A DNA stretch of 64,000 nt from Candidatus Poriferisocius sp. (GTDB lineage: Bacteria; Actinomycetota; Acidimicrobiia; Acidimicrobiales; Bin134). The stretch covers positions 215,095 through 279,094 of the forward strand of contig NZ_OZ241836.1 of assembly GCF_965202595.1 (NCBI RefSeq). Direction: 5' to 3'. Below the pieces are notes generated by a model, which was given only the letters and a program-made list of their open reading frames with translations, had not been told where the DNA came from and searched no databases. Positions 13,045 through 58,600 of this stretch are shown piece after piece. The position numbers and the translations under genes are program-made. Numbering within the stretch: the stretch's first letter is position 1; the number at the start of each line of letters is the position of its first letter.

Positions 13045-13281
13045 ATGGCCACGTTGCGGCTGTTTGCTCAGATCAGGGAAGCGGTGGGTACTGGGCGTGA
13101 CGAGGTTCCGGGGGCCACCGTCAACCAGGTGCTGGCCGCGGCGGTTGATCGCTACGGCCCGGCGTTTGCCGAGCAGCTTCAGATTTGCCGGGTATGGCTG
13201 AACGGCCAACCCGTCACCGGCTCCGAGCCAGTGAGCGATGGCGATGAGGTGGCTGTGCTGCCCCCTGTCTCGGGTGGGTAA
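13045..13281 (+). CDS. MoaD/ThiS-family sulfur-carrier protein
   Basis: MATLRLFAQIRE...GDEVAVLPPVSGG*: ubiquitin-like beta-grasp pattern with a C-terminal GG. The start is taken at the internal ATG of track ORF 12976..13281. Confidence 0.7.
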   Translation: MATLRLFAQIREAVGTGRDEVPGATVNQVLAAAVDRYGPAFAEQLQICRVWLNGQPVTGSEPVSDGDEVAVLPPVSGG

Positions 13282-13290
13282 CCTGATCCC

Positions 13291-14505: not shown

Positions 14506-14515
14506 TTTATTGCCA

Positions 14516-14648
14516 ATGACGCGGCCTGGTGGTGTTGATCTGTGGGGTTGTCGATGACGCGGCCTGGTGGTGTTGATGTGTGGGGTTGTCGATGACGCGG
14601 CCTGGTGGTGTTGATGTGTGGGGTTGTCGATGACGCGGCCTGGTGGTG
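14516..14648 (+). repeat. 38-bp tandem repeat (3 full units plus a partial one) encoding three ATGA-chained 13-codon mini-ORFs that lead into the next gene
   Basis: Mini-ORFs at 14516-14557, 14554-14595 and 14592-14633 (MTRPGGVD[L/V]WGCR*). Each stop overlaps the next ATG. The last ATG, at 14630, starts the downstream gene (MTRPGGDTGG...). Confidence 0.9.
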
Positions 14649-15118
14649 ATACCGGCGGCAATTTGGCGCTGACGGTTGAGGAGTTGGCTGCGCTGGGGTC
14701 GGCCATCGACGCGTGGCTGGACGATCAGCTCCGAACCAATCCGACCGTGTTGACGGTGGACCGGGGGGAACCCGGCCGGCACCGCTGGTACGTGCGGATG
14801 GTGGGGGAGGAGAAGGCGGTGTCAACCGTGTGGTTCACTCTCGGCCAACGCCAGTTGCACTGCGAGTGCTACTTCATGCCCGCCCCCGAGGAGAACGAGG
14901 GCCAACTGTACGAGTACCTGCTGCGCCGCAATCGTGATCTGGCCGGGTTGCGGTTCGCCATCGGTGTCGAGGATGCCGTGTTCCTGGTTACCGAGTTGCC
15001 GGTCCACGCGGTGACCGAGGCCGAGATGGATCGCATTCTGGGTTCGTTCTACGCCTACGTGGAGAGGTGGTTCCGTCCCTGCATGCGCATCGGCTACGAG
15101 TCACGGTTCAACCCTTAA
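14630..15118 (+). CDS. YbjN-like conserved hypothetical protein (the gene usually found next to mshA in actinobacteria)
   Basis: Track ORF 14618..15118; ATG 14630 is preferred. The family call rests on my recollection of the mshA neighbourhood and on sequence style only. Confidence 0.5.
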   Translation: MTRPGGDTGGNLALTVEELAALGSAIDAWLDDQLRTNPTVLTVDRGEPGRHRWYVRMVGEEKAVSTVWFTLGQRQLHCECYFMPAPEENEGQLYEYLLRRNRDLAGLRFAIGVEDAVFLVTELPVHAVTEAEMDRILGSFYAYVERWFRPCMRIGYESRFNP

Positions 15119-15127
15119 CATCTTTAG

Positions 15128-15156
15128 TTGATTTTCATGTATTTTCAGTATACAAT
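15128..15156 (+). promoter_or_regulatory. Candidate sigma-70-type promoter inside a ~55-bp AT-rich patch upstream of proC
   Basis: TTGATT (15128-15133), 17 nt spacer, TACAAT (15151-15156). The patch stands out in otherwise GC-rich DNA. Confidence 0.4.
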
Positions 15157-15234
15157 GATTATTCCTGGCCGGTGGGGGGATCGGGGAAGTCCTCCTGCCG
15201 GCCACTGTTACGGCTTGGGGATTTTTAAGTCCTG

Positions 15235-16104
15235 GTGATGAGGCCGCCCGCCTGCTATAGCAGTGAGGTGGCACTTCGGCTGCAATTGATTGGTGGCGGC
15301 CGCATGGGTGAGGCTCTGCTCGGTGGCTTGCTGGCCGGCGGGTGGGCACAGCCCGGCGAGCTGGCGGTGGTGGAACCGATCCCGGCCCGGCGAGCGGAGT
15401 TGGCGGGGCGGTTCCCTGGCCTGACCGTGGCCGAGCAGCCGATTGATGGGGTTGAGGATGTGGTTTTGGCGGTCAAACCGGATGATGCCGCCGGCGCGGC
15501 CACCCGTCTCCGGGAGGCCGGTGTCACCAGGGTGCTCAGCATCGTGGCCGGGGTCACAACTGCGGCTCTGGAGGCGGTTTGGGATGGCGGGGTCACCACT
15601 GCGGCTCTGGTGGGGGTTTGGGATGGCGAAGTCAGGGTTGTTCGAGCCATGCCCAACACACCGGCGCTGATCGGCACCGGGGCGGCGGCAATTGCTCCGG
15701 GGCGAGGGGCCACCGATGAAGACCTGGCGTGGGCCACCACCATCCTTGAGGCGGTGGGCACGGTGGCGGTGTGTGACGAGTCGATGCTGGACGCTGTCAC
15801 CGGGCTCTCGGGTTCGGGGCCGGCTTACGTGTTCTGGTTGGCTGAGACCTTGATGGCCGCGGGGGTGAAGGTCGGCCTTCCCGAGGCCATGGCTGATGCC
15901 CTCACCCGCCAGACCATTCTGGGGGCGGCCAAGCTGCTGGTGGAGTCCGGCGAGGCCCCTGCCGACCTGCGGGCCGCGGTGACCTCTCCGGGCGGCACCA
16001 CCGCTCGGGGAATCGCTGAACTGGAGGATCGCCGGGCCGGAGCGGCTTTCGTGGCCGCGGTGACCGCTGCCACCGAGCGTAGCCGGGAGCTGGGTAAATC
16101 CTGA
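15235..16104 (+). CDS. proC: Pyrroline-5-carboxylate reductase
   Basis: LIGGGRMGEALL Rossmann motif, VRAMPNTPA, and SPGGTTARGI near the C-terminus. GTG 15268 is a more likely start. Contains an in-frame 39-bp duplication at 15550-15627. Confidence 0.9.
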   Translation: MMRPPACYSSEVALRLQLIGGGRMGEALLGGLLAGGWAQPGELAVVEPIPARRAELAGRFPGLTVAEQPIDGVEDVVLAVKPDDAAGAATRLREAGVTRVLSIVAGVTTAALEAVWDGGVTTAALVGVWDGEVRVVRAMPNTPALIGTGAAAIAPGRGATDEDLAWATTILEAVGTVAVCDESMLDAVTGLSGSGPAYVFWLAETLMAAGVKVGLPEAMADALTRQTILGAAKLLVESGEAPADLRAAVTSPGGTTARGIAELEDRRAGAAFVAAVTAATERSRELGKS

Positions 16105-16249
16105 TCCTTGGGGCACTTGTGTCCTTGGGGCATTTGTGGAGGCGGGGGTGGATATTGATATTTGGGGTATTTGAGGGGACTGGGTGGCACCCGGTCGGCC
16201 ACTCGGCATAAGGTGATCGCCCTACCGCGGAGTTGAGGGGTATTTTGGT

Positions 16250-16444
16250 ATGGCAAAGCCTGAAGGACGGGAGCGACTCATGACCGTGGCCGAGGTTGCC
16301 ACTCTCATGAGAGTTTCGACGATGACGGTTTACCGGCTTATCAACGCGGGGGACCTTCCCTCCGTTCGGATTGGCAAGTCGTACCGATTGCGGGAGAGCG
16401 ATGTGGATCACTACCTGGCCAGCCGCTACACCCAGGCTGGTTGA
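16250..16444 (+). CDS. Excisionase/MerR-like helix-turn-helix DNA-binding protein
   Basis: MTVAEVATLMRVSTMTVYRLINAGDLPSVRIGKSYRLRESDVDHYL is the classic excisionase-family HTH. This is a conserved proC neighbour in actinobacteria. Confidence 0.75.
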   Translation: MAKPEGRERLMTVAEVATLMRVSTMTVYRLINAGDLPSVRIGKSYRLRESDVDHYLASRYTQAG

Positions 16445-16501
16445 GGGCGTGGATCGCTACCTGGTCGGCCGGTACTCCTGGGCCGGTTTGTACCGCCTCG
16501 G

Positions 16502-17389
16502 TTGATACCGCCTCGGGGCACTGGCGCAGCCTTGCGCTACGACACCGTCTCGTTCTTGTCCGATTACGGGCTGGGTGATGAATTCGTCGGGGTGGTGAAG
16601 TCGGTCATCCGGTCTCTGGCTCCCGAGGTGGTGGTGGTGGACATCACCCATGACATTGCTCCTCACGATGTCAGGGCCGGGGGCCTGGCCCTGGCTCGCA
16701 GCGCCCAGTACCTGGTACCCGGGGTGGTGCTGGCCGTGGTCGATCCCGGAGTGGGGGGCAAGCGGCGGGCCGTGGCGGTGGAAGTGGGAGGCGGAACCTC
16801 GGTGCTGGTCGGCCCCGACAACGGCCTGCTGGCCCCGGCGGTGGCCATGGTCGGGGGAGCGACCCGAGTGGTGGAGCTGACCGCCGAGAAATACCACCTT
16901 CGCTCTCCCGGCCCTACATTCGCGGGCCGCGACGTGTTCGCTCCGGTGGCCGCCCACCTGTGTTCGGGGGTCGGGCTCGAAGACGTGGGCACGCCGATCC
17001 CTATGCACTCCCTGACTCCGGGAGTCGTGCCGGTGAGCCGTACCGGCGGCGACCGGATCGATGCCGAGGTGCTTTGGATCGATCGATTCGGGAACTTGCA
17101 GCTCAACCTCGACCCCTCCGACATCGACCCTATGGGTGATGTGCTGAGGATCACCGCGGGCGGTGTGGGTCGCAACGCCCGCCGGGTCAACTGCTTCAGC
17201 GATGTGAGCACTGGTGATCTGGGGATACTGGTAGACTCCTACGGGTTGGCGGCCGTTGCGGTCAACCGAGGTTCGGCAGCGATGGAGTTGAACTGCAAGG
17301 AGGGTGACTCCATCATCGTCGAATCGGGGGAGTCCGCTTTGGCCACCCCGGTGCAACTTCAACCCAGACCCCCGGAGGTGCCGGCATGA
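16502..17389 (+). CDS. SAM hydroxide adenosyltransferase / SAM hydrolase family (DUF62)
   Basis: VSFLSDYGLGDEFVGVVKSVI, PGVVLAVVDPGVG, LVGPDNGLL and IDRFGNL match the fluorinase/chlorinase-like family. Confidence 0.75.
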   Translation: MIPPRGTGAALRYDTVSFLSDYGLGDEFVGVVKSVIRSLAPEVVVVDITHDIAPHDVRAGGLALARSAQYLVPGVVLAVVDPGVGGKRRAVAVEVGGGTSVLVGPDNGLLAPAVAMVGGATRVVELTAEKYHLRSPGPTFAGRDVFAPVAAHLCSGVGLEDVGTPIPMHSLTPGVVPVSRTGGDRIDAEVLWIDRFGNLQLNLDPSDIDPMGDVLRITAGGVGRNARRVNCFSDVSTGDLGILVDSYGLAAVAVNRGSAAMELNCKEGDSIIVESGESALATPVQLQPRPPEVPA

Positions 17390-17484
17390 GACCGGGAACC
17401 ACCATCGCTATCGCCGTGCCATGAGACCGGGAACCACCATCGTCATCGCCGTGCCATGAGACCGGGAACCACCATCGTCATCGC
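17386..17484 (+). repeat. 35-bp tandem repeat (2 units plus a partial one) encoding two ATGA-chained 12-codon mini-ORFs
   Basis: Mini-ORFs 17386-17424 (MRPGTTIAIAVP*) and 17421-17459 (MRPGTTIVIAVP*). The first ATG overlaps the upstream gene's stop (ATGA at 17386-17389). The last stop overlaps ATG 17456. Confidence 0.9.
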
Positions 17485-17545
17485 TGTTTTGCTGCTGGCC
17501 ATCCTGGTGGCGGCGGCGGTCCAATTGTTCGTGCTGGCTCGCTGA
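17456..17545 (+). CDS. 29-aa hydrophobic micro-protein
   Basis: MRPGTTIVIAVLLLAILVAAAVQLFVLAR*: a single predicted TM helix. It is the terminal member of the repeat chain and too short for the ORF track. Confidence 0.4.
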   Translation: MRPGTTIVIAVLLLAILVAAAVQLFVLAR

Positions 17546-17558
17546 TCGGTATTACCGG

Positions 17559-18200
17559 TTGACCGTTATGCCCATCGAGGAAGCCCTCTACCCGGTGAAC
17601 CTGCGGATCAGGGGTTACCGTTGCCTGGTGGTGGGGGGAGGCCAAGTGGCACTGGCCAAAACCGAAGGGCTGCTGGAAGCCGGGGCGAGGGTGGACGTGA
17701 TCGCCCCCGATCCGGTTCCCGATCTGGAGAACCGCGAGCGGGTTACCGTTCACCGCCGCCGTTACCGCTCCGGGGACGTGGTTGGTTACCGCCTCGTGGT
17801 GGCGGCCACCGGCAACCGGGAGATCAACGCTCAGGTGTACCGCGATGGCGAGTCGTCCGGGGTGTGGGTGAACAGCGCCGATGACCCCGAGAACTGCTCG
17901 TTCACCCTCCCCAGCAAGATGCGCCGGGGGCCGATCATGGTTACCTGCTCCACCGGCGGCCACAGCCCGGCCCTGTCCCGCTGGCTCCGCCGCCGTTTTG
18001 AGGAAGAGATCGGACCCGAGTACGAGACGCTGCTGGGTCTGCTCAGCGAGGCCCGGGAGCGGTTCCGGGCCGCGGGCGTGTCCACCGAGGACCTGGCTTG
18101 GCAACAGGCACTGGATTCGGGGATGCTGGAGATGATCCGCTCCGGTGAAACCCGACGAGCACGAGACATCGTCGACCGCCTGGTCGATAACCCCGGATGA
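17559..18200 (+). CDS. Precorrin-2 dehydrogenase / sirohydrochlorin ferrochelatase (siroheme synthase N-terminal domain type)
   Basis: CLVVGGGQVALAKTEGLLEAGARVDVIAP Rossmann motif and the overall CysG-N/SirC pattern. Sits upstream of hemA. Confidence 0.8.
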   Translation: MTVMPIEEALYPVNLRIRGYRCLVVGGGQVALAKTEGLLEAGARVDVIAPDPVPDLENRERVTVHRRRYRSGDVVGYRLVVAATGNREINAQVYRDGESSGVWVNSADDPENCSFTLPSKMRRGPIMVTCSTGGHSPALSRWLRRRFEEEIGPEYETLLGLLSEARERFRAAGVSTEDLAWQQALDSGMLEMIRSGETRRARDIVDRLVDNPG

Positions 18201-18204
18201 ACCA

Positions 18205-19455
18205 GTGTCAGTACTTGCCATAGGCCTCAACCATCGAACAGCGCCCCTCGGCCTGCTGGAGCAGATGACCATTGACGAGTCCCACCAACCCAAGGCGCTG
18301 ACCGACCTGATGGGGAGGGAGAACATATCCGAGGCGGTTGTGCTCTCCACCTGCAACCGCATCGAGGTTTACGCTTTTGCCGAGACCTTTCACGGGGCGT
18401 TCCAGAATGTGCGGGACTTTTTGTCCGAGACCGCTCATGTGCCCCCTGAGCGGTTCAGCGATGCTCTCTACGTCCACTACGAGGCCGATGCCGTGTCGCA
18501 CCTGTTCGCGGTGACCAGCGGTTTGGATTCCGCGGTACTGGGCGAGCATGAGATTCAGGGTCAGGTGAGGAACGCATGGGAGGCAGCCCGGCTGGAGGGC
18601 ACCTGCGGCACCACTCTGAATGCCCTGTTCCGTCATGCGGTGGAGGTTGGTAAGCGGGCCCGCTCCGAGACCGGCATCTCCCATCACATCACCTCGGTGT
18701 CCCACGCGGCCGTGGCTCTGGCCGGCGAGCGGCTGGGCGGGTTGGTCGGCCGTCGCATGATGGTGCTGGGAGCCGGGGACATGGGCGGGGGAATGGCCGC
18801 CGGCCTGGCCAACAGTGGGGTTGGAGAGGTTGTGGTGGCCAACCGCACCGCCGACCGGGCCGCGGAGCTGGCCCGCCGGGTGGGAGGCCGGTCGGTGGGT
18901 CTCGACGAGTTGGCCGCCGAGCTGGTGGCAGTGGATGTGCTTTTGACCTCCACCGGTGCGTCCTCGATGATTCTGGAGCACTGTGATGTGGCCGGGATCA
19001 TGGCCCGGCGGGGACACCGCCCGCTGCTGATCGTGGATGTGGCCGTACCCCGGGACGTGGATCCGACCGCGGGCAACCTGGACGGGGTAACCCTGCTGGA
19101 CATGGACGACCTGCGGGCCTTCGCCGACCGGGGCCTTCAGGAGCGTCGGGCCGAATCGGAACGGGTGCGAAACATCATCGGCCACGAGGTGAACCGCTAC
19201 ATGGATTACAGCTCGGCTCGGGAGGCGGCCCCCCTGGTAGCCGCGCTCCGGTCCCGGGCCGAGATCCTGCGCCGGGAGGAGCTGGATCGTCATGGCGGCG
19301 GGTTGTCGCCGGCCGAGCGGGAAGCAGCCGAGGCCGCCACCAGAAGGGTGGTGAACAAACTCCTGCACGAGCCCACCGTCAGGCTCAAGCAGGCTGCGGG
19401 GTCGCCGCGAGGTGATCGGTTGGCCGAAGCCCTACGGGATCTTTTCGATCTCTGA
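18205..19455 (+). CDS. hemA: Glutamyl-tRNA reductase
   Basis: GLNHRTAPL, STCNRIEVY and VLGAGDMG motifs. The start is set at GTG 18205, just after the upstream stop; the maximal ORF begins at 18145. Confidence 0.9.
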   Translation: MSVLAIGLNHRTAPLGLLEQMTIDESHQPKALTDLMGRENISEAVVLSTCNRIEVYAFAETFHGAFQNVRDFLSETAHVPPERFSDALYVHYEADAVSHLFAVTSGLDSAVLGEHEIQGQVRNAWEAARLEGTCGTTLNALFRHAVEVGKRARSETGISHHITSVSHAAVALAGERLGGLVGRRMMVLGAGDMGGGMAAGLANSGVGEVVVANRTADRAAELARRVGGRSVGLDELAAELVAVDVLLTSTGASSMILEHCDVAGIMARRGHRPLLIVDVAVPRDVDPTAGNLDGVTLLDMDDLRAFADRGLQERRAESERVRNIIGHEVNRYMDYSSAREAAPLVAALRSRAEILRREELDRHGGGLSPAEREAAEAATRRVVNKLLHEPTVRLKQAAGSPRGDRLAEALRDLFDL

Positions 19456-44795: not shown

Positions 44796-46382
44796 GACGG
44801 ATCCAGCATTTTGGCGGCCATAATCTTTTTGCCCCTGGTGGGTGCGGTTGCCCTCGCGCTGGTGGCCCCGTCCCGCTCGACGGTGCTCAAACCGGTGGCA
44901 GTGGCCACCTCGTCGGCCACCGGGGCCCTCACCCTCTGGCTGATGGCCGCCTTCGACAGCGGTGACAGCGGCTTCCAGTTCACCCAGGTGGCCGGGTGGA
45001 TCGATTCGGCCGGCATCTCCTGGCATGTGGGGGTGGACGGCATCTCGCTGTTCCTGGTCGTGCTCACCGGGGTGCTGTTCCCCATTGCCATCGTGGCCTG
45101 TGACCCACCCCATAACGCCAAGGCCTACTACGTCTGGCTGCTGGTGCTGGAGACCGGCTGCCTCGGGGTGTTCCTGGCGCTGGATCTGGTGCTGTTCTTC
45201 CTGTTCTTCGAGATCGTGCTGGTGCCGATGTACTTCCTCATCGGCTCCTGGGGTCACGACAACCGCCGCTACGCCGCCACCAAGTTCTTCCTCTTCACCA
45301 TGCTGGGCTCGGCCCTGATGCTGGTGGGAATGCTCACCCTGGCTCTGCTCACCGCCCACCACACCGGCAACGCCGTCACGTTCAACGTCGTAGAGCTGGC
45401 CCAAAGCGCCGGTGAGCTGCCCACCATCACCGCCCGCTGGGTGTTCCTGTCGTTCGTTTTGGCCTTTGCGGTGAAGGTTCCCATGTTCCCGGTGCATACC
45501 TGGTTGCCCGATGCCCACACCGAGGCCCCCACCGCCGGCTCGGTGATCCTGGCCGGGGTCATGCTCAAGCTGGGTACCTACGGTCTGGTCCGTTTCGGCC
45601 TGTACCTGTTTCCCGAGGCCACCCGCTACTTCGCTCCGCTCATGTTCACCCTGGGGGTGATCGGCATCCTCTACGGCGCGGTGGTGGCCACCATGCAGCG
45701 TGACCTGAAGCGCCTGGTGGCCTACTCATCGGTGGCCCACCTCGGTTTCATCGTGCTGGGCATATTCGCCCTCAACACCGAGGGACTGGAGGGCGGCCTG
45801 CTCCAGATGGTCAACCACGGGCTGTCCACCGGGGCGTTGTTCCTGCTGGTGGGGTTCATCTACGAGCGTCGCCACACCCGCCGGATCTCCGAGCTGGTGG
45901 GTCTGCAAAAGGCCGCCCCGGTTCTGGCCGCGGTGTTCACCGTGGTGATGCTGTCGTCGGTGGGGCTCCCCGGGCTCAACGGCTTCGTCGGCGAGTTCCT
46001 CATCCTGACCGGGGCGTTCGTGGCTCACCGCTGGTGGGCGGTGGTGGCCACCGCCGGGGTGATTCTGGCCGCGCTCTACCTGTTGTGGGCCTACCAGAGG
46101 GTGTTTCACGGCACCCCCGACGGCAAGAACGCGTCCACGCCCGACCTCACATGGCAGGAGAAGCTGGTGATGCTGCCGCTGGTGGGCCTCATCGTGTTCT
46201 TGGGGGTGTACCCCAAACCGGTGATAGAGAGGATGGAACCAGCGGTGAACGCCCTGATCGAGCACATGGAACGGGTCGAGGGGTTCGAGTCGCCCACGGT
46301 GGGTGATCGACCCGGCGGCAGCTTCGAGGAGCTGCGCGACCTCCGGGTGGATCACGATGACACCGGGGAGGGTCACCACTGA
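44790..46382 (+). CDS. nuoM: NADH-quinone oxidoreductase subunit M
   Basis: FAVKVPMFPVHTWLPDAHTEAPTAGSVILAGVMLKLGTYG. Start is GTG 44790 or ATG 44793. Confidence 0.95.
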   Translation: MMDGSSILAAIIFLPLVGAVALALVAPSRSTVLKPVAVATSSATGALTLWLMAAFDSGDSGFQFTQVAGWIDSAGISWHVGVDGISLFLVVLTGVLFPIAIVACDPPHNAKAYYVWLLVLETGCLGVFLALDLVLFFLFFEIVLVPMYFLIGSWGHDNRRYAATKFFLFTMLGSALMLVGMLTLALLTAHHTGNAVTFNVVELAQSAGELPTITARWVFLSFVLAFAVKVPMFPVHTWLPDAHTEAPTAGSVILAGVMLKLGTYGLVRFGLYLFPEATRYFAPLMFTLGVIGILYGAVVATMQRDLKRLVAYSSVAHLGFIVLGIFALNTEGLEGGLLQMVNHGLSTGALFLLVGFIYERRHTRRISELVGLQKAAPVLAAVFTVVMLSSVGLPGLNGFVGEFLILTGAFVAHRWWAVVATAGVILAALYLLWAYQRVFHGTPDGKNASTPDLTWQEKLVMLPLVGLIVFLGVYPKPVIERMEPAVNALIEHMERVEGFESPTVGDRPGGSFEELRDLRVDHDDTGEGHH

Positions 46383-47881
46383 TGCTCCCGATGCCGGCCC
46401 AGGTGGTTTCCCCCGACACCCCCGACATCGAGTGGTTGGCCCTGACCCCCCATCTGGTGATGGCTGGGGCCGCGGTGGTGCTGCTGACCATCGTTTCGGT
46501 GGCCGGCCGCCGGCTGCCGGGTTGGTTCGCGGCGGCGTGGACGGTGGCGGCCGGGGTGGCGGTGCTGATCACCGCCGTGCCGGTATGGCTGCGGGTACAC
46601 GACCAGGGGCCGTCCTCGGCGGTGGCGGGAGCCATTGGCGTGGACAAGTTCTCGGTGTTCTTGATCGTGCTGCTGGCCGGGGTTGTGGTGCTGGCCGCCC
46701 TGGTGGCCGATGGCTTCCTGCGCCGGGAGAGTCTGGATGGTCCCGCCTTCTATGCATTGTTGATGTTGTCGGCGGCCGGGGGCATGACCATGGCCTCGGG
46801 CAACGACCTGATCGTGCTGTTCCTGGGGCTGGAGATCCTGTCGCTGGCGGTTTACGTCCTGGTGGCCATGCACCTGCGCCGATCCGAATCCCAGGAGGCG
46901 GGCATAAAGTACTTCGTGCTGGGAGCGTTCGCGTCGGCGTTCTTGCTGTACGGAATTGCCCTGGTTTACGGGGCCACCGGGTCGACCAACCTGGTGGACA
47001 TCCAGGAGTCGGTGACGGGCCAACCCGGTAGTGACGGCGCGCTGCTGATGGCCGGGCTGGCCATGCTGCTGGTGGGGTTCGGCTTCAAAGTGGCTGCGGT
47101 GCCGTTCCACGCCTGGACCCCCGATGTGTACCAGGGGGCACCGTCACCGGTGGTGTCGTACATGGCCGCCGGGGTGAAAGCGGCCGGGTTTGCCGCCCTG
47201 ACCCGGGTGTTCGTGGCTGCCTTCGGGGCGCAGGCCGGGGACTGGAAGCCGGTGATCCTCGGCCTGGCCGTGGCCAGTCTGGCCGTGGGATCGCTGCTGG
47301 CCATCGTGCAGGCCGACGTGAAGCGAATCCTGGCCTACTCCTCGATCAGCCACGCCGGTTTCATCCTCGTGGGGGTGCAGTCCGCCACCGACGCCGGGAC
47401 GGCTGCGGTGCTGTTCTATCTGGCGGCCTACGCGGCCATGGCCCTGGGCAGCTTCGCGGTGGTGACCCTGGTCAGCGCCCCCGGCGACGAGGGGGTCAGC
47501 ATTGGTGATCTGCGGGGCCTGGCCGCCCGCCGCCCGGTGCTCGCCGGTGCCTTCACCCTGCTGCTGCTGTCGCAGGCCGGCATACCGTTCACTGCCGGCT
47601 TCTGGGCCAAGTTCGAGGTTATCGCCGCCGCCGTGGATGCTCGATCCTTCTGGCTGGCGGTGATAGCCATGCTGGCCGCGGTGGTAGCGGCGTTCCTGTA
47701 CCTGCGGATCGTGGTGTCCATGTACCTGGAGGCTCCCGACCCCGATGCCCCCCGCATCAGCATCCCCCGCGGCCCCGCCCTGGCCATCGCCATCGTGGTG
47801 CTGTTCACGGTGGTTATAGGTGTCTACCCCGAGCCCCTCACCAACCTGGCCGGCGACGCACTGCCCATCATCATGGACTAG
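46382..47881 (+). CDS. nuoN: NADH-quinone oxidoreductase subunit N
   Basis: FGFKVAAVPFHAWTPDVYQGAPSPVVSYMAAGVK. TGATG overlap with nuoM (not duplicated). Confidence 0.95.
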   Translation: MLPMPAQVVSPDTPDIEWLALTPHLVMAGAAVVLLTIVSVAGRRLPGWFAAAWTVAAGVAVLITAVPVWLRVHDQGPSSAVAGAIGVDKFSVFLIVLLAGVVVLAALVADGFLRRESLDGPAFYALLMLSAAGGMTMASGNDLIVLFLGLEILSLAVYVLVAMHLRRSESQEAGIKYFVLGAFASAFLLYGIALVYGATGSTNLVDIQESVTGQPGSDGALLMAGLAMLLVGFGFKVAAVPFHAWTPDVYQGAPSPVVSYMAAGVKAAGFAALTRVFVAAFGAQAGDWKPVILGLAVASLAVGSLLAIVQADVKRILAYSSISHAGFILVGVQSATDAGTAAVLFYLAAYAAMALGSFAVVTLVSAPGDEGVSIGDLRGLAARRPVLAGAFTLLLLSQAGIPFTAGFWAKFEVIAAAVDARSFWLAVIAMLAAVVAAFLYLRIVVSMYLEAPDPDAPRISIPRGPALAIAIVVLFTVVIGVYPEPLTNLAGDALPIIMD

Positions 47882-50371
47882 TTGACAACTTCAACACTGT
47901 TATAAAATTTGAAAAATACACTGTTCAAGTAAGTGACTTCTTCTGAAATACTGTCACAATTTTTTCAAATTACTACTGTAGTTGAGTTTACCAATATAGG
48001 ACTCCATGAAATCCCAATCCGGTAATCCGGGTTTTATTACAGGCAAAGGTATCCGTGATCGTTCCAAGCGGGCTTTCACAAGGGCATATCCGTAGTTGTA
48101 GGTGCCCTTGTGAGCGAAATCCATCACAGTCACTAGAAAGATGCCAATACCTGCGCTCATTCTCTCGTGCCTGATAATGTTTACCTTGTTACCCTTCAAG
48201 AACTCATCTGGCTGATAGAAGGCCACTACTCCCTCTGCTCCTATCGTTATACAGTTCCCCTCATAGGATGTGTCATGCCTACCGAAGCCGTCCACCCCGT
48301 TGTTAGACGCGGTACGCGTGATGTACGGCAGGCTGCCTTCAATAAGCTCTCTCTTATCGGTGTAAGGTCCAAGGGTAACAGCGAACGTTTCTCCGATATT
48401 GAAATACTCCCATTCCCTGTCAGTGAGCCGAAGATCAGATTCAGATATGGGTTGTGAATGTACGGCGTTAAGCTTACCCTGAGAAAACATAGCTCCTGTG
48501 AGTAATCTCAAAGAATACTGGAAGTCTTCCTGTGTCAACTGCCGGTAATCTCGCGTAATACAGGCCTCTGCGCACCACTCATCAGCTGGGTTAAGCTCTC
48601 TCATTTCACTGAAATATGGGACTTCATCTCTGTTGAGGAAATGCCTTACCCACTGATCTCGAATGGAAGGCCACTTGTTGTCCGGATCTACTCGACCCTT
48701 GTGCATCTCCACCACATAGCCGTCATCTTTGGCAAGTGCCAGCCAGACTTTTTTACCTTTTGGATGTGGGCGATGGGCTATAATCACCATGACGCAGGTA
48801 ACAGCGCTAGCTTTGGAGTTAAAAAACAGTTGATTTGGCATGGACAACACTGCTTCCAGCGTGTGTTTTTTCATCAACTTTGACTTGAAGTTGATGATCT
48901 TGTCACTTGTGGATAGAGCTGACTGCATGGGAATGATGGCAATACAGATGCCTCCATCACCTAAAATATCAAGGTTATTGAGTACAAACTCCCACTCTTC
49001 TTTGTCGTGTCTTTTGTTCGATTTATATGGAGGGTTGAGCATTCCTACAGTGGGCCGTTTAATTTTCATTCTTGCAATAATATCGGTATCGAAACAACTT
49101 GCTTGCTCTATATTGGATTTGCCATCTTGATGTATAAACATGTTGGAGACAGCCAGTGGAAAAATGTCAGCCTGTAGTTCAACTCCGAAAAGCTGGCTGT
49201 TCTTTATACGGGTTTCTAGTTCTTCCGATCCCTTAGCATCTGTAATCATACGTTTCATAGCGCTGATCAGGAATCCCCCAGTACCTGCACAATTATCGTA
49301 GACTATGGAGGACTTATTCACCTGGGCTAGATCTGCAAATAACTCGGTTATATGCGGTGGTGTAAGAACTATACCCAGGCCCTTATCCTTGTTGGCATAT
49401 CTCAGGAACTCAACGTACAGTTCGCCTAGGACATCCCGGTATTCATGGTTTTTGATGAAGGAGTTTATTTCGCTATCTATCTGCTGTACTAACTCTCTCA
49501 GTTCCCCATCCTTTTGAATCAAAGCTGTCTCGTGTTCAATGAATGAGAACTTCTGTTCCAGCAATCTAAGTTTTTCCTCATCCAAGTCGGCCTTCAACTC
49601 TGCTAGGACTCGTTTCTGAATATCCTTTGCCAATTCTACCGAGTCGTTTTCCGCGCCATATGATCTTTTGAAGGACGGATTCTCCAAAGCTATTAGTATA
49701 GCACTTATCAAGAGTGCTCTGTTGCTTTCAGCGACTTTGTTTCTATGTAAACGCTCATTCAATATACGAAGAAAACTCTTCAAAGAATCGTAGTCTTGCC
49801 TGTACTTATCAGGATTATTGTAGTAGCCCCGAATATAATCTGACGGAGAAAGCAAAGTTTCATCAAATATTGGAGTCGGGCACGCAACTCCTTTGAGGTG
49901 TAGAAAATGGGAAATTCTGGCATCTGTGTGAGTTTCTCCACTGATACCTATACAAATCACGTCGAATTCTTTTGATAGGTAAGACGAGTAATGCATGGCA
50001 CCATCAACCGCAAATTCGATGGGACGGTCCCGGTCAGGACTCTCATGTTTGTTCCGGTCAGCCTTGCACTCGATCACGATTAAAAGATCGGGTTCGTCTT
50101 TCAAAGTAACCAGGAACTCGGGATAACCTCGTCCTGCCCCTCCTTTCGATGCCGATGCCAGCAGTTTTTCGATTCGGCGGTGCTTGGATTTTTGCTCTTC
50201 CACTTCTACCTGGTCGGCGTACTGCCTGAAGTGGGATCGAACTATTTCCTCTGTGTTTCTCTCGTTAGGCACTGTTCGTTACTGGCTTCCTTGAGAGCGG
50301 TCGACCGGAGCACTCCATTTCACTTTCTCCATGAGCACATAGTACAGGTGGTGCGTGACAATTTGTGTGAT
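47882..50371. other. AT-rich islet 1 (about 2.5 kb), filling the space between the stop codons of convergent nuoN and the PQQ dehydrogenase gene
   Basis: An abrupt compositional switch is visible in the raw sequence at both edges. Hand counts on a few 60-nt lines give roughly 30-50% G+C, against roughly 65-70% in the flanks. No integrase or transposase is present. Confidence 0.8.
47954..50272 (-). CDS. Single-chain Type IIG-like restriction-modification enzyme (PD-ExK nuclease + gamma N6-adenine methyltransferase + HsdS-like target recognition domain)
   Basis: 772 aa. The N-terminus has PDLLIVIECK (D...ExK). The centre has VLTPPHITELFADL, DNCAGTGGFL (motif I) and MLNPPY (motif IV). The C-terminal ~270 aa show the HsdS TRD pattern ending in IPLPV. 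Confidence 0.7.
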   Translation of the reverse strand: MPNERNTEEIVRSHFRQYADQVEVEEQKSKHRRIEKLLASASKGGAGRGYPEFLVTLKDEPDLLIVIECKADRNKHESPDRDRPIEFAVDGAMHYSSYLSKEFDVICIGISGETHTDARISHFLHLKGVACPTPIFDETLLSPSDYIRGYYNNPDKYRQDYDSLKSFLRILNERLHRNKVAESNRALLISAILIALENPSFKRSYGAENDSVELAKDIQKRVLAELKADLDEEKLRLLEQKFSFIEHETALIQKDGELRELVQQIDSEINSFIKNHEYRDVLGELYVEFLRYANKDKGLGIVLTPPHITELFADLAQVNKSSIVYDNCAGTGGFLISAMKRMITDAKGSEELETRIKNSQLFGVELQADIFPLAVSNMFIHQDGKSNIEQASCFDTDIIARMKIKRPTVGMLNPPYKSNKRHDKEEWEFVLNNLDILGDGGICIAIIPMQSALSTSDKIINFKSKLMKKHTLEAVLSMPNQLFFNSKASAVTCVMVIIAHRPHPKGKKVWLALAKDDGYVVEMHKGRVDPDNKWPSIRDQWVRHFLNRDEVPYFSEMRELNPADEWCAEACITRDYRQLTQEDFQYSLRLLTGAMFSQGKLNAVHSQPISESDLRLTDREWEYFNIGETFAVTLGPYTDKRELIEGSLPYITRTASNNGVDGFGRHDTSYEGNCITIGAEGVVAFYQPDEFLKGNKVNIIRHERMSAGIGIFLVTVMDFAHKGTYNYGYALVKARLERSRIPLPVIKPGLPDWDFMESYIGKLNYSSNLKKL

Positions 50372-51805
50372 CTAACCCGCTGCGTCCAGCCGGTACACGG
50401 TGCCGTCGAAGCTCAGCGCGTACAGCTCCCCACCGGCATCCTCACCGAATGAGACCAGGGAGACGGGTGGGACGGAGACCCCCAGTTCGATCCGGGTGAA
50501 CATCCCCTGGTCGTCAACGCTCAGCCCCCACAGGTGGCCGGCGCAGTAGTCCCCGAACACGTAGGTTCCCACCAGGTCGGGAATGGCCGATCCCCGGTAG
50601 ACATGGCCGCCGGTGATCGAGCAGCCGTCCTCATGGCTGTACACGTGGATGGGTGGCACCAGGTCATCGGGGGTTGCGGTGCCGGAGAACCGCTCGTTTC
50701 CCTCGAACAGCGGCCACCCCAGGTTGGTCCCCGGCTCCCAGCCGTCGCCGGCCGCCAGCCTGTGAATCTCTTCCCACTCGTTCTGCCCGACATCGGCGAT
50801 CCACAGGTCGCCGGTGGTCCGGTCGAATGAGAACCGCCATGGGTTGCGGGCCCCGTAGGCCCAGATCTCGGGGCGGGCCCCGCCATCGGTGAAGGGGTTG
50901 CCGGGGGGAATGGTGTAGCCGGTTCCACCGCCGGCTTCGGGGTCGATGCGGATCATGGCCCCCAGAACCGAGTTCAGGTTCTGGCCGTGTCCGAAGGTGT
51001 CGTTGGCCCCACCCCCGTCCCCTAATCCGATCCAGAGGTGGCCGTCGGGTCCGAAGACCAGGTGGCCGCCGTTGTGGTTGCAAGCCGGTTGGGTCACGTC
51101 CAGCACCCTCCGGCCCCCATCCTCCAGAACCCGTTGCCCGGCCATGGGATACTCCACAACCTGGTTGTTGCCCTCCAGGTCGGTGTAGTGGGCGTAGAGT
51201 TTCGATCCGTCGGGGGAGAAGGCGATGCCCAGCAGTCCCATTTCGCATCTATTGGTGGTCAGATCGCCGATGTCCAGCACCGTTAGGGGAGGCTCATCAC
51301 CGCCGGCGGCCAGGAGCCACACCTGCCCGCCACGGGAGGCCACGTAAAGATCGCCCGGATCGCCGGTGCCCGGCCGGGCAACCAGGGCAATAGGTTCGGT
51401 CAGCGACACCACCGGGGCCAGCATCAGCAATGGCGCATTGGGTTGGTTGGGGTCGTTGGGTGTTGGCGGATTGGGTTGGTTGGGGTCGTTGGGTGTTGGC
51501 GGATTGGGTTGGTCGGGGGTTGCTGGTTGTGTTGGCTGCTGGGGTGGGGTTGATGTTGGGGTTGGTTCTGGGGGTTGGTTGGTGGTTGCTGGTTGTGTTG
51601 GCTGCGGGCGTGGGGTCGCATTGGTGGTTTCGGGGTCTCCGATACCTTCGTCGTTACCGCCCCCGCAGGCACCGGCCACCAGGCATACCCCGGCGATGAC
51701 CACCACCATTTGGCCCCGGGAGTTCGCGATCAAGTTCGCAGCAAGCCGGCTCGCTGACCGCAACCTGATGTGAGTAAGCATTCGGATCAGGAAGCTCGCG
51801 ATCAA
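50372..51805 (-). CDS. PQQ-dependent sugar (glucose/sorbosone) dehydrogenase, secreted or lipoprotein, with a Pro-rich repeat linker
   Basis: NHNGGHLVFGPDGHLWIGLGDGG, GNPF, EIWAYGARNPWRFSFD and GWPLFEG motifs. The N-terminal 24 codons lie in a 72-bp junction duplication, so TTG 51733 may be the ancestral start. A 33-bp in-frame repeat lies at 51437-51515. Confidence 0.8.
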   Translation of the reverse strand: MIASFLIRMLTHIRLRSASRLAANLIANSRGQMVVVIAGVCLVAGACGGGNDEGIGDPETTNATPRPQPTQPATTNQPPEPTPTSTPPQQPTQPATPDQPNPPTPNDPNQPNPPTPNDPNQPNAPLLMLAPVVSLTEPIALVARPGTGDPGDLYVASRGGQVWLLAAGGDEPPLTVLDIGDLTTNRCEMGLLGIAFSPDGSKLYAHYTDLEGNNQVVEYPMAGQRVLEDGGRRVLDVTQPACNHNGGHLVFGPDGHLWIGLGDGGGANDTFGHGQNLNSVLGAMIRIDPEAGGGTGYTIPPGNPFTDGGARPEIWAYGARNPWRFSFDRTTGDLWIADVGQNEWEEIHRLAAGDGWEPGTNLGWPLFEGNERFSGTATPDDLVPPIHVYSHEDGCSITGGHVYRGSAIPDLVGTYVFGDYCAGHLWGLSVDDQGMFTRIELGVSVPPVSLVSFGEDAGGELYALSFDGTVYRLDAAG

Positions 51806-52641: not shown

Positions 52642-52835
52642 GACCGGCTCATTCTACCGCCTTGAACCCGTGGCTGATGCATCTATCTGAAAATGTCCAC
52701 GTCTAACGGCCAAATAATCGGCTACCCACAAGTTCATGTCTGTAACAAACTCGTCAAACCACTCTGGTGGCATCTCATATGCTTTCTGTTTCCCTCTGGA
52801 AGTGTCCGTTTTCTACTCTAATGCATCAACATTTT

Positions 52836-53555
52836 TTAGAAGGGTAGGCGGTTGTTATAAGAAGCTTTGATTAACCGATTCTCAGCAGCAGTGAAATAGG
52901 CTTGGTCCAATTCAGCACCTAGGAAGCGTCGTTTCAGGTTTAGCGCTGCTACACCAGTTGATCCGACACCCATAAATGGATCATAAACAAGATCACCTTC
53001 TAGGGTGGCCAAATTTATTATATGTTCCAACACACGTACTGGTTTCTGCGTTGGGTGTTTAGGGTCTTTCAATCGTTCCCTGCCCATGCAGATAGGAGTT
53101 TCAATAAAGTTGTGCATATCAGACTGTTTCCCGAAGTTCCAGGTATGCCCTTTGTTCCACACACAAATAATTAGTTCACATGAGTTGAGAAATCCTGCTT
53201 TTCTGATCTTGGGTGCAGGGTTAGTTTTGTGCCAGACCATAAACTGAAACGTGTCAAACTCTGGGTCGAAAGCGTCATGCCACTGTCCCAACAAGTTATA
53301 ACTAGTGAAGGCAAAAATGTTTCCAGTTGGTTTCAAAATGCGTGTGAATTCATGTAACCACTTGGCTGGTATGAACTCTTCTCTATCCCATTCTGCTAGA
53401 TCATTGTTGAGATCAGAACGCCAGTTAAATTTCATGTTGCCAGTCGAATATGGGCTGAGATTGTATGGAGGGTCTGTGAGGATAAGGTCAACGGTGTGGT
53501 CAGGTATTGTTTTGATGTGCTCAGCGCTGTCAGCCCACACTGTTTCATATTCCAT
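52836..53555 (-). CDS. Beta-class N4/N6 DNA methyltransferase
   Basis: DLILTDPPYN (motif IV) lies near the N-terminus and DPFMGVGSTGVAA (motif I) near the C-terminus. That order and the 239-aa size fit the N6_N4_Mtase family. Confidence 0.85.
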   Translation of the reverse strand: MEYETVWADSAEHIKTIPDHTVDLILTDPPYNLSPYSTGNMKFNWRSDLNNDLAEWDREEFIPAKWLHEFTRILKPTGNIFAFTSYNLLGQWHDAFDPEFDTFQFMVWHKTNPAPKIRKAGFLNSCELIICVWNKGHTWNFGKQSDMHNFIETPICMGRERLKDPKHPTQKPVRVLEHIINLATLEGDLVYDPFMGVGSTGVAALNLKRRFLGAELDQAYFTAAENRLIKASYNNRLPF

Positions 53556-53556
53556 A

Positions 53557-54396
53557 TTATTCTCCCAAGTAGGTGTTTCGTATAGAGTCTAAAGCTAGTC
53601 GGATATAGTGTGCACTGTCCCTGTATGCTTTCAATACCCATTCATAACCGTTGTCTGATTGGCACACAAAGTTCCAAAAGTCTTGACCTATCAATAGTTC
53701 TTCGTCTGCAAAAAATTGTCGTACTCTTTCTTGTGCCCACGGTTGGCCTTCTCCAAATCTGTTATAGGCAGTAGCGAAGAAAGTACGGACTGTGGCATCC
53801 TCGGAAAGCTGATTGGTCAGTATCGTATATTGTTCCATAATAGCTTCTTTTTCAGAGCGTGCCTTCTTGTTGTCCAGGTCACCGCCTATCTTTAGTTCTA
53901 TCAGGTAGTGTTTGTTAGCTGCTCTGTCAATCAGATAATAGTCAGACCCGTGCTGTTTTATGATAGGTGAACCTTTTACTGATTTGTGCAGCTTTCTGTA
54001 GTCAGATAGAGATGGTGTTGCCCGTCGGCTTTTATAACTTTCTAATATCGCAGCGATGGTCGATATTTGATCTTCACTTATAAAGCCAGATATATTATTG
54101 TGAACCTCAAACGAGAGTTCTGCAATTTGGATTGCTAGTTTTTCTAACATGTTGCCTAGCGAACTGTCTAGTGATCGAACTAAAGCAGTATAGTATCGTA
54201 TTTCCGGCCCTAAAGCTTCAATAAAAATATTGTGTATTTTCATGTTTATCACGCCATTAGGGTTGTTTACTTCACTTTCGTGGCGCAGCTTAAACCCTTC
54301 CGCGTATGCCATCACACAGCCGCGTACAAGCGTTTCAACTGCCAGTTGCTTGGGTGTGTTGTCGTGCGTCATGCGGCCCCTGTTTCCAATTTTCAT
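53557..54396 (-). CDS. Probable Type II restriction endonuclease, partner of the adjacent methyltransferase
   Basis: 279-aa AT-rich ORF ending 1 nt before the methyltransferase start. It has a candidate PD-(D/E)xK-like core (DYYLIDRAANKHYLIELKIGGDLDNKK). It resembles the TdeIII-type family from memory only; this is unverified. Confidence 0.5.
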   Translation of the reverse strand: MKIGNRGRMTHDNTPKQLAVETLVRGCVMAYAEGFKLRHESEVNNPNGVINMKIHNIFIEALGPEIRYYTALVRSLDSSLGNMLEKLAIQIAELSFEVHNNISGFISEDQISTIAAILESYKSRRATPSLSDYRKLHKSVKGSPIIKQHGSDYYLIDRAANKHYLIELKIGGDLDNKKARSEKEAIMEQYTILTNQLSEDATVRTFFATAYNRFGEGQPWAQERVRQFFADEELLIGQDFWNFVCQSDNGYEWVLKAYRDSAHYIRLALDSIRNTYLGE

Positions 54397-54529
54397 TGCT
54401 GGTATTGTGTCAGACAGGAGTGACAGTTTTGCATTTTACCTGGTCAGATGTGATTTTGTTCATATTTGGTATAAACCTATAATAGGCCGAGCGGAGTAAG
54501 TCAAGAAGAAATACGCTGGGACAATCCTG

Positions 54530-57255: not shown

Positions 57256-58600
57256 TCCTATAGTTGTTCTCTGAGCACTCGAAGAAGGCGGTCATGCTCT
57301 GTATCCAAAAGTTCCTTTTGTGCTTCAAATTCTTCCAGTGCCTCAAAAAACTCTTTAACCATCTCTCTCTGGTTATCAATGGGTATAACTGGAATGGGAA
57401 TACATTCAATATGTTTTTTGTAAATGTGAGGCTGCCCTGTCCCTTGTTGTCTACTGTAAATTTCATTTTGGCGGCTTTTTACGCAAGCATAAAGGTATCC
57501 AGTTAGAAATTTAAATTCATCCCTACTATATACTACAATACTATCTGATGCCCATATAGGCCCACTGTGCCACCAAACATAGCATGAGTAGGCACCGCTC
57601 TTGCTTATAGTAAAGCAATTTCCGCGGTGTGTAAAATTTTTGTGGTTGTACGGACTGGACCCACCGCCAGCAATAACAGGTATATTTCCTGGGAGTATCT
57701 CCTGCTTTGTGATTGATTTCCCATTCTCTAAATAAGCAACATTTTTTAGTAATACATAGTCGACACTTTCAGGAACAGGCCATAGTGAATTGGTTAGTGC
57801 AGCAAACACGTTTTTCATGTTACGGGTTTTGACGACAGAGACTGAGCGATTCATATCCTCAGGAATCGGGTCAGGTTCATCCTGGTATGATAACTGCCAT
57901 ACTTCCTCCTTCTGACAAAGAGTTGAAACACCGTAGCAAACAGGCTTCATCAGCGTCCTTCGCATCACTGTCAACCAGGCGAATCTCACCCCTGCTGAGA
58001 CTTTGGGAAAATGGAATGTTGGAGAAGACAACTTGGAATTTGTTCTCTGGAGGGTTGTTTATGCTGTTAATTTGAGTCACACCTGAGTGGCCATCTCCGA
58101 ACAGAATCATATTCATTTTCGCTATTCGTGCGTTGCTAGTTATTTCTTGCCCAAATATGGTTTTGGTTTGAAGAATCTCTATATCCCGAGGTGACCTCCC
58201 AGCTTTGAAGCTAAGGTGTTTGTATGATTCTACTAGAAATCCACCTGTGCCACAGAAGAGATCGAATACTGTCTGCCTAAACTCTGGATCAACAAGTTTT
58301 ACCATAAATCGGACAATATGTCTGGGTGTGAAGTATTCACCAAGGTCATTCTGAATGGTTGTACGCTGAATAAAATGCTCAAATGCAACTCCTTTTATGT
58401 CTTCATCAACACTTGACAAACTTAAAGGGTTCAATTCTAATATAATTTTCTTTAGTACTTTTCCATCCTTAATTTTGGTTTCAGAAATAACCTCACTAGC
58501 ACCGTATCGACATCTGCGACAGTTACCCCTGAACCACAAAACACCAGGTCAGAAGGGGTGTCTTTAGCGCCGTACATAAGTCGTGTTCTGGTCAGATCAA
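57256..58600. other. AT-rich islet 3 (about 1.3 kb) between two convergent host genes
   Basis: A sharp compositional switch follows the stop at 57255. The right edge is fuzzier, around 58550-58660. Confidence 0.7.
57258..58539 (-). pseudogene. Decayed Type I/IIG-like methyltransferase-specificity (M-S) gene: frameshifted and truncated
   Basis: ORF 57877..58539 has the YFTPRHIVRFMV, DLFCGTGGFL and SNIPFS N6-MTase motifs, but lacks the N-terminal domain and ends early. The overlapping ORF 57258..58031, in another frame, encodes one HsdS-type TRD plus a conserved helix. A further frame break lies near 58540-58590. Confidence 0.7.

Follow-up and report, generated by a model that had tools for sequence, protein, structure and literature searches.

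A very probably foreign, single-chain restriction-modification gene of the HaeIV kind in an AT-rich islet beside the nuo operon of a sponge-associated Acidimicrobiales genome

Between the last gene of the nuo operon and a sugar dehydrogenase gene of a sponge-associated Acidimicrobiales MAG lies a short AT-rich islet with one gene, which raises the question of what its product is, how it would act, and how it came to lie there. In the window, that is, the whole stretch of 64,000 nucleotides analysed (contig NZ_OZ241836.1), the composition profile drops sharply from about position 47880 to 50370, with a GC content of 0.40–0.50 in the islet (47882–50371) and 0.64–0.71 outside it. The sole gene of the islet is an R-M-S ORF of 772 aa with a GC3 of 0.48, against 0.78–0.88 in the neighbouring genes; GC, GC3 and ORF all agree with the original prediction of an AT-rich islet holding a single intact gene. 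The features of the locus are as follows.

46382..47881, plus strand: nuoN, native flank and last gene of the nuo operon (Pfam Proton_antipo_M, 7.8e-75)
47882..47953, no strand: spacer between the nuoN stop and the R-M-S stop, 72 bp, very AT-rich (GC ~0.28)
47954..50272, minus strand: intact single-chain R-M-S gene, 772 aa, GTG start, without internal stops
47957..48433, minus strand: single TRD and short C-terminal helix, residues 614–772 (Methylase_S, Specificity_II, S-subunit alignment)
48434..48592, minus strand: linker with helix 581–597 (AF2 model; alignment to a 639-aa RM subunit reaches residue 588)
48593..49447, minus strand: gamma-class N6-adenine methyltransferase domain, residues 276–560 (Pfam N6_Mtase, 2.7e-29, residues 279–557)
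49025-49036, minus strand: methylase motif IV, NPPY, residues 413–416
49268-49297, minus strand: methylase motif I, DNCAGTGGFL, residues 326–335
49448..49822, minus strand: multi-helical connector between nuclease and methylase, residues 151–275 (all helices over 143–275 in the AF2 model)
49823..50272, minus strand: N-terminal PD-(D/E)xK-type nuclease domain, residues 1–150 (PADLOC REase_MTase_IIG; AF2 fold)
50063..50122, minus strand: nuclease catalytic motif P51-E52-x15-E68-C69-K70 (PEFLVTLKDEPDLLIVIECK), from conservation in family representatives
50273..50371, minus strand: spacer between the GSDH stop and the R-M-S start, 99 bp, GC ~0.5
50372..51805, minus strand: GSDH-family (PQQ-type) sugar dehydrogenase gene, native flank (Pfam GSDH, 4.2e-35)

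A nuclease, a gamma-class N6-adenine methylase and one HsdS-like TRD are all present in the protein, as expected for the solitary, horizontally acquired R-M-S fusion that had been proposed. We consider it highly likely that the gene is of foreign origin and, jointly with this, that its product is a BcgI-type RM chain fused to half an S subunit, i.e., a HaeIV-type single-chain Type IIB/IIG enzyme. The PADLOC model REase_MTase_IIG (PDLC03608) matches residues 29–589 at 5.8e-131, and a second PADLOC IIG model of 637 positions matches at 4.9e-57. Residues 22–588 share 31% identity (E 2e-64) with a 639-aa RM subunit encoded by the C. perfringens plasmid NZ_CP075906, on which the gene for a 353-aa S subunit adjoins the RM gene. 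The TRD is matched by PADLOC Specificity_II (1.6e-16) and, just below the gathering score, by Pfam Methylase_S (residues 620–761, E 2.9e-4). It aligns to TRD1 (1–169, E 4e-25) as well as to TRD2 (188–340, E 7e-21) of the plasmid S subunit, and residues 614–770 amount to half of such a BcgI-type S subunit with its two TRDs. The linker has its counterpart in the helical tail at the C-terminus of stand-alone BcgI-type RM subunits, a tail with a role in the M2S four-helix bundle (PMC11997821). In the methylase domain, motif I precedes NPPY, which is the gamma order, and the best PDB matches are HsdM structures. The paper on BsaXI describes an R-H-M layout equivalent to the connector arrangement.

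Among characterised enzymes, the closest architecture is that of HaeIV from Haemophilus aegyptius (Piekarowicz et al., 1999, as given in PMC4081073 and PMC3874165), written as "2R~gammaM~[GAY]", a homodimer whose recognition site, GAY N5 RTC, is symmetric and is flanked by cuts on both sides (PMC4081073; PMC3874165). Both enzymes have one chain with an N-terminal nuclease, a gamma-class N6-adenine methylase and a single specificity domain, and neither has a separate M or S gene; this likeness is one of architecture, set against the published description of HaeIV, and the host here differs in being a sponge-associated Acidimicrobiales MAG. The BcgI-type two-gene systems share the homologous RM part, a nuclease glutamate at the position of BcgI Glu53 (E52 here) and S halves that are each homologous to the TRD. 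Unlike them, the islet protein has RM and a single TRD fused in one chain, and no separate S gene, two-TRD or otherwise, was found in the islet, whose neighbours are nuoN and GSDH. AloI, PpiI, TstI and CjeI are single-chain Type IIB enzymes of ~1250 aa with the layout TRD1-CR1-TRD2-CR2 (PMC3874165; PMC4027205; PMC11997821). They have the same R-M-S order and a BcgI-like RM core, but carry two TRDs and recognise asymmetric bipartite sites, whereas the islet protein has one TRD and is ~480 aa shorter. A Type I R-M or Type ISP system was also considered and rejected, with no helicase (HsdR) domain in the Pfam, NCBIfam or PADLOC matches; TIGR00497 (hsdM) scored 51, far under its cut-off of 242.75.

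The protein is a typical representative of a known and very large family, in which thousands of homologues measure about 770–800 aa. The family splits into R-M-S chains (~770–810 aa) and RM-only chains of ~580–660 aa that match residues 3–590. The GTG start is backed by an ATG in an 84%-identical copy (MPNER...) and by the conservation of residues from 3 onwards across the family. The original prediction had called 772 aa compact, with MmeI as the comparator. Neither point held: lengths of 770–800 aa are the commonest in the family, and the chain matches, in the same order, a BcgI-type RM subunit followed by half of its two-TRD S partner, so that ~600 aa of RM and ~160 aa of TRD explain its length. 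A phage homologue is annotated as "bcgIA protein".

How such a chain would act is suggested by the stoichiometry of BcgI, which PMC3592470 gives as A2B, where A is the nuclease-methylase and B the two-TRD S subunit. Since two RM chains there share one S subunit with two TRDs, two chains that each carry RM and half an S should pair into an A2B equivalent, probably through helix 581–597 and the C-terminal helix. [quoted passage not shown] By analogy with these enzymes, we regard this dimeric, symmetric and two-sided mode as likely, and the whole explanation, in which a foreign HaeIV-type enzyme, the dimeric mode and the locus history below are combined, as one to be held with fairly good confidence. 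In the AF2 model (pLDDT 89.1, pTM 0.83), the helices that flank the TRD are short, at 17 and ~15 residues. The conserved regions of Type I HsdS are roughly 40 residues long, so that the dimer interface is not assured.

These short helices would also fit with a mode of action like that of MmeI or BpuSI (Type IIG/IIL), in which a monomer would recognise a contiguous asymmetric site, methylate one strand and cut on one side, one to two helical turns away. The MmeI family resembles the islet protein in its solitary gene and its nuclease-methylase-TRD chain, and both MmeI and BpuSI have one TRD per chain. Foldseek matches of the AF2 model include HsdM, BpuSI, DrdV and BsaXI, with BpuSI (3s1s, E 2.6e-16) and DrdV (7lo5) ranking above BsaXI, and the Type IIB R-M-S chain of RdeGBIII has an S domain like that of MmeI (PMC11997821). 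Against this stand the sequence matches. Pfam MmeI_Mtase reached only E 0.2 and 11.3 bits, far under its gathering cut-off of 27, and the MmeI N, hel, TRD and C domains of Pfam were not found in the protein. PDB searches with the protein and with the family profile matched only HsdM and HsdS at the sequence level, and not MmeI, BpuSI or BsaXI; methylase and TRD resemble HsdM/HsdS and BcgI, and in this differ from those of MmeI. Homology links the TRD to each half of a BcgI-type S subunit and the RM part to RM subunits that require a two-TRD S partner, and the stoichiometry argument speaks for a dimer. We therefore consider the monomeric mode unlikely.

The dimeric, two-sided mode also presupposes an active nuclease. 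The original prediction placed a PD-ExK motif in the N-terminal part, with "PD" at residues 61–62. A motif of this type exists, but its conserved version is P51-[E/D]52...E68-x-K70. Conservation was assessed in 129 family representatives at 50% identity, with residues counted over the sequences that cover the nuclease region: [E/D]52 is present in 115/115, E68 in 115/115 and K70 in 116/116. As the catalytic aspartate, the "PD" at 61–62 was rejected, being variable (D 50, N 26, E 11, G 7) against the invariant [E/D]52. The AF2 nuclease domain has an alpha/beta core with strands 53–57 and 60–70. For BcgI, PMC3592470 describes the E53A mutant as being without nuclease activity. NPP[YF] is found in all 129 representatives. 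Compared with close copies, the gene has a dN/dS of ~0.05 overall and about 0.05–0.1 across all domains, and these values are rough because dS is saturated. Judging by these data, no catalytic motif is damaged and purifying selection acts on all of them, which answers the concern, raised at the outset, that homology might reveal a non-cleaving methyltransferase family.

A protein that functions as a methyltransferase only, with its nuclease silent in vivo and its gene retained for a role in epigenetics or self-labelling, would fit with the public annotation of the named homologues, all of which are called "N-6 DNA methylase", and with the 15/129 representatives that lack the N-terminal domain. 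Cleavage by the islet enzyme is itself a sequence-based prediction. However, all representatives that have the domain keep the nuclease motif residues, the domain has a dN/dS of 0.09–0.11, and the annotation carries no functional weight, as it mirrors the sole Pfam domain above threshold. This alternative thus appears very improbable. A correct annotation of this "N-6 DNA methylase" family would describe a complete one-gene R-M system of the HaeIV/BcgI kind; the family abounds in metagenomes, and no close relative of it has been characterised.

The flanks of the islet are native. Orthologues of nuoN in congeners share 77–89% identity, and GSDH orthologues are present in 23/24 congeners. The two genes converge on the islet, and the R-M-S gene has the same orientation as the thioesterase-GSDH genes upstream of it. 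It had been proposed that the gene was inserted precisely between the two convergent stop codons. This is borne out by composition, but most congeners, about 17 genomes of the same genus, carry a gene for a TPP enzyme in the same slot. The suggested comparison of synteny did yield relatives without the R-M-S gene at the slot; the sole empty state found is that of the divergent genome G013, in which the flanking genes are only ~100 bp apart. In the sister genome, nuoN and GSDH are separated by 22.8 kb of other genes. This makes the slot a variable one. A tree assigns to the G000/G008 lineage the event by which the TPP gene was lost or replaced, and the R-M-S gene now sits in its former place. 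No remnant of the TPP gene was detected by tblastn in the islet or its spacers, and the best match to the TPP enzyme in the same genome is a 34% paralogue elsewhere.

Related copies of the gene lie at other sites. Among 40 relatives searched at E<=1e-20, two have the gene, one of them at full length, and it was not found in the other 38. The five closest homologues (61–84% amino acid identity) all come from Acidimicrobiales or Acidimicrobiia MAGs, the closest copies sit at different, non-orthologous loci, and all four copies examined are co-oriented behind a host gene. The close copies have a GC of 0.45–0.49 in hosts of ~66% GC, and dS among them is saturated. DNA homology with the closest Acidimicrobiales copies extends no more than 4 bp upstream of the start and 6 bp downstream of the stop. 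The 84%-identical copy is found in OZ220474. A sister copy in OZ220491 (81% amino acid identity) is flanked by a target duplication of 172–190 bp with 85% identity.

The islet as an old resident of the lineage, its low GC maintained by selection and with no recent foreign insertion, is an extremely unlikely reading, for although the closest homologues are all from Acidimicrobiales or Acidimicrobiia and GC stays low while dS is saturated, the copies occupy non-orthologous loci, most relatives searched lack the gene, congeners hold another gene in the slot and GC3 is 0.30–0.40 below that of the neighbours.

The edges of the foreign gene were no more informative about its entry than the original prediction had found them to be. 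No direct or inverted repeats or target duplication occur at the islet edges beyond chance-level 8–13-mers, no integrase or transposase gene lies inside the islet, and the flanking ORFs scanned with Pfam include no mobility genes, each having a non-mobility assignment. In the 72-bp spacer, only the 6 bp nearest the R-M-S stop are common to related copies, and 3 of these overlap the stop codon. A bidirectional terminator hairpin was considered for this spacer and dropped, as shuffled sequences fold equally well (z 0.02 and -0.67) and no other significant terminator or hairpin was found in it. The 99-bp spacer contains a Shine-Dalgarno-like AAGGAAG; only its last 4 bp are homologous to sister copies by blastn, and ~25 bp are weakly alignable. 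No sigma-70-like promoter was found upstream of the gene on the minus strand with a scan that covers actinobacterial promoters poorly. Searched as possible donor flanks, 95 bp of islet sequence upstream of the gene and 66 bp downstream of it match none of 85 family loci. The comparators are different species, and the breakpoints are for this reason not fixable to the base.

R-M genes have been described as mobile units, with substitution-type loci and insertions with long target duplication (Furuta, Abe and Kobayashi, 2010; PMC2853133). The islet resembles their substitution class, being an R-M gene without mobility genes in a slot where relatives have unrelated DNA. Their long target duplication is seen in the sister copy of OZ220491, whereas the copy in the window has neither duplication nor repeats. 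The islet thus adds to a known kind and overturns nothing known about R-M enzymes or their mobility. A more speculative idea, which we think quite doubtful, is that the moving unit is close to the bare ORF, in an enzyme-driven, promoterless "cassette" mode of R-M spread in sponge microbiomes that is so far undescribed. It is prompted by the ORF-limited homology, the unrelated sites, the co-orientation, the one target duplication, the one replacement of a metabolic gene and the low GC of the clade; as part of the same idea, the AT-richness might be kept by selection, e.g., through xenogeneic silencing.

This genome has three R-M islets within 11 kb, each placed independently of the others, and the islet described here is one of them. 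Together with the variable slot by the nuo operon, these islets are useful for the study of defence-gene turnover in sponge-associated Acidimicrobiales.

The gene studied here encodes a nuclease, a methylase and one target-recognition domain (TRD) in a single chain (RMS protein), and its reading frame lies between the convergent genes for nuoN and a dehydrogenase of the PQQ-type sugar dehydrogenase (GSDH) family:

46382-47881, + strand, nuoN, islet flank, convergent with the GSDH-family dehydrogenase
47954..50272, - strand, RMS ORF, 772 codons, no interruption
50372-51805, - strand, GSDH-family dehydrogenase, islet flank, convergent with nuoN

The islet (~47880-50370) has a GC content of 0.40-0.50 versus 0.64-0.71 in the two flanking genes, and the GC3 of the RMS gene is 0.48 (neighbours 0.78-0.88). 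The spacers measure 72 bp on the nuoN side (GC ~0.28) and 99 bp on the GSDH side. ORF, GC, GC3 and gene order confirm the islet and intact 772-aa frame described in the original prediction. The GTG start matches the ATG (MPNER...) at which the 84%-identical copy of sister genome G008 begins, and it agrees with conservation across the family from residue 3 onward. The predicted lack of repeats, integrase and transposase also held: no repeats above chance were found at the islet edges, the RMS ORF is the sole gene of the islet, which contains no mobility gene, and the surrounding ORFs that were Pfam-scanned were all assigned to non-mobility families.

The RMS protein matches Pfam N6_Mtase at residues 279-557 (2.7e-29) and, below threshold, Methylase_S at residues 620-761. 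The PADLOC Type IIG REase-MTase model PDLC03608 covers residues 29-589 (5.8e-131), a second such model (637 positions) scores 4.9e-57, and a Type II specificity model (341 positions) matches residues 607-763 (1.6e-16). A word-indexed search returned more than 3500 homologues, nearly all of 770-800 aa, while an exhaustive search gave 5495 matches among 50% representatives. The chain had been called compact; its length is in fact the family norm. The family splits into RMS chains of ~770-810 aa and chains with nuclease and methylase only (RM) of ~580-660 aa, equivalent to residues 3-590; a few chains among the 50% representatives lack the N-terminus.

On a Clostridium perfringens plasmid, a 639-aa RM gene adjoins a 353-aa specificity subunit (S) gene. 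RMS residues 22-588 align to this RM chain (31% identity, E 2e-64), and each half of the S subunit aligns with residues 614-770, namely TRD1 at 1-169 (E 4e-25) and TRD2 at 188-340 (E 7e-21). By these alignments, the RMS protein is an RM chain of BcgI type joined to half a BcgI-type S subunit, which accounts for its length of ~600 + 160 residues. We are highly confident in this class, a bifunctional RM of BcgI type with a single TRD attached. BcgI is the closest known type by demonstrable homology, and HaeIV the closest known enzyme by architecture; the RMS enzyme is a new, uncharacterised addition to a known architecture. The MmeI-type enzymes initially used as comparators proved inappropriate, and membership of that family is ruled out, with the MmeI methylase model reaching only E 0.2 and the other MmeI domains absent from the Pfam results. 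An AloI-type two-TRD chain is ruled out by the single TRD aligned, and Type I and ISP enzymes were rejected in membership tests.

Catalytic integrity was assessed in 129 representatives, with N-terminal figures taken from those covering that region. P51 is kept in 112/115, position 52 is E or D in 115/115, E68 is kept in 115/115 and K70 in 116/116, and NPP[Y/F] is present in all 129. E52 falls at the position of BcgI Glu53, which belongs to the BcgI PD...EXK motif (PMC3592470). The 'PD' at 61-62 originally proposed as catalytic is discarded, the position being variable (D 50, N 26, E 11, G 7). A methylase-only family and unconserved D/E/K residues, either of which would have told against the original prediction, were looked for and neither was found. 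Estimates of dN/dS against the two closest copies were ~0.05 for the whole protein and 0.09-0.11 for its nuclease domain; these are rough because dS is saturated, and still clearly well below 1. The AlphaFold2 model of the protein is confident (pLDDT 89.1, pTM 0.83), and its Foldseek matches include HsdM structures, BpuSI (3s1s), DrdV (7lo5) and BsaXI RM (8w2p/8w0p).

BcgI has the composition A2B: two RM chains share a single S subunit, which carries a pair of TRDs (PMC3592470). In enzymes of the RM+S group, a four-helix bundle forms between the C-terminal helix of RM and the CR helices of S (PMC11997821). HaeIV is the single-chain form, written '2R~gammaM~[GAY]'; it acts as a homodimer with two copies of one specificity domain and cuts on either side of the symmetric sequence it recognizes, GAY N5 RTC (PMC4081073; PMC3874165). 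By analogy, two RMS chains would pair, probably via helix 581-597 and the C-terminal helix 753-771, and the dimer would read a symmetric bipartite site. It would protect the host's DNA by methylating one adenine per half-site and, on unmodified DNA, excise the site by double-strand cuts on both sides. We consider this dimeric, symmetric, two-sided mode probable. The main rival, in which one chain works as a monomer in the manner of MmeI or BpuSI, appears unlikely.

The placement between two convergent stops stood as a compositional description; as a history of simple insertion it did not, since the interval is a variable slot. Close homologues are rare among relatives: just two of 40 match the RMS protein at E<=1e-20, and the sole full-length copy, in G008 (84% identical), lies at an unrelated locus. 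MT24-GtrA / thioesterase-GSDH synteny is kept in 19 congeners, and ~17 congeners carry, downstream of GSDH and convergent with nuoN, a gene for an ~811-aa TPP-dependent enzyme in a 2.66-kb interval. This gene is absent from the window's own genome (G000; best match a 34% paralogue) and from G008, G002, G013 and G005. The slot spans 22.8 kb in G008, giant fn3-repeat genes included, and only ~100 bp in G013 (50% GC), the most divergent relative. In a thioesterase+GSDH tree rooted on G013, G000 and G008 are sisters nested within TPP-bearing genomes, so the TPP gene was lost or replaced in their lineage. The RMS gene sits in a variable slot formerly held by a metabolic gene; comparators being other species, the islet breakpoints are placed only within the spacers and the few codons at the gene ends. 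In the G008 slot (L040, G008:C1:1511500-1531499, at 1977-19081), the giant ORFs of 1745, 1872 and 1752 aa have native-like GC, and the 1745- and 1872-aa ones, which were Pfam-scanned, consist of fibronectin type III repeats.

All five of the closest homologues (84, 81, 77, 65 and 61% aa identity) come from Acidimicrobiales or Acidimicrobiia MAGs. At ~50% identity the family reaches across many phyla and takes in several lineages associated with sponges, for example Poribacteria and Candidatus Spongiihabitans. DNA homology between the islet and any relative is confined to the stretch that begins 4 bp ahead of the start codon and ends 6 bp past the stop, with ~25 bp of weak similarity upstream in alignments, ribosome-binding site included. 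The RMS gene is co-oriented with its upstream gene in all four cases (window, G008, OZ220491 and the 65% copy, which follows a run of small ORFs). The 81% copy (L046, OZ220491.1:2553701-2568019) lies between adnB- and adnA-like genes and is flanked by direct repeats at 5576-5747 and 8442-8631 (172-190 bp, 85% identity). The repeat is the duplicated adnB/adnA target junction, part of which occurs a third time upstream, and it matches the 'insertion with long target duplication' published as a footprint of R-M genes (PMC2853133). The window copy has no insertion footprint at its edges and resembles the 'substitution' class, common at 116/760 locus pairs (Furuta et al., 2010; PMC2853133). Plasmids, both mobilizable and conjugative, and staphylococcal phages carry RM-only relatives. 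The G008 copy lies in an AT-rich islet of 4.3 kb. Behind it, within that islet, comes a DUF6119 gene broken into two ORFs of 401 and 133 aa (L042, G008:C1:630000-646000, at 9612-11256), possibly an accessory gene or a decaying passenger. The copies in the window, L042 and L046 have GC of 0.45-0.49 in hosts of ~60-68% GC, with dS of 1.7-2.1; either repeated recent transfers from an unseen low-GC pool or maintained AT-richness could explain this. The ORF-only homology, and AT-richness persisting despite saturated dS in an Acidimicrobiales-restricted clade, remain curiosities.

A third is the presence of three R-M islets within 11 kb. AT-rich islet 2 (52650-54500) lies between thioesterase and GtrA genes:

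52836-53555, - strand, N6_N4 methylase
53557-54396, - strand, TdeIII-family endonuclease

The two flanking genes are directly adjacent (~100-150 bp apart) in 19/19 congeners examined, which identifies islet 2 as a clean insertion. AT-rich islet 3 (57258-58539) holds a degraded methylase~TRD gene. Its 220-aa ORF contains motif I (FDLFCGTGGFL) and the sequence NIPF before an early stop, and an overlapping 257-aa ORF in another frame encodes an HsdS-like TRD with a long CR helix; together they probably represent an M~S fusion that was frameshifted or truncated. In the 5' part of the GSDH gene (51350-51650), GC skew is strong (+0.44) and AT skew negative. The BLAST self-match of the GSDH protein breaks at residues 60-125, which suggests a low-complexity N-terminal linker there.
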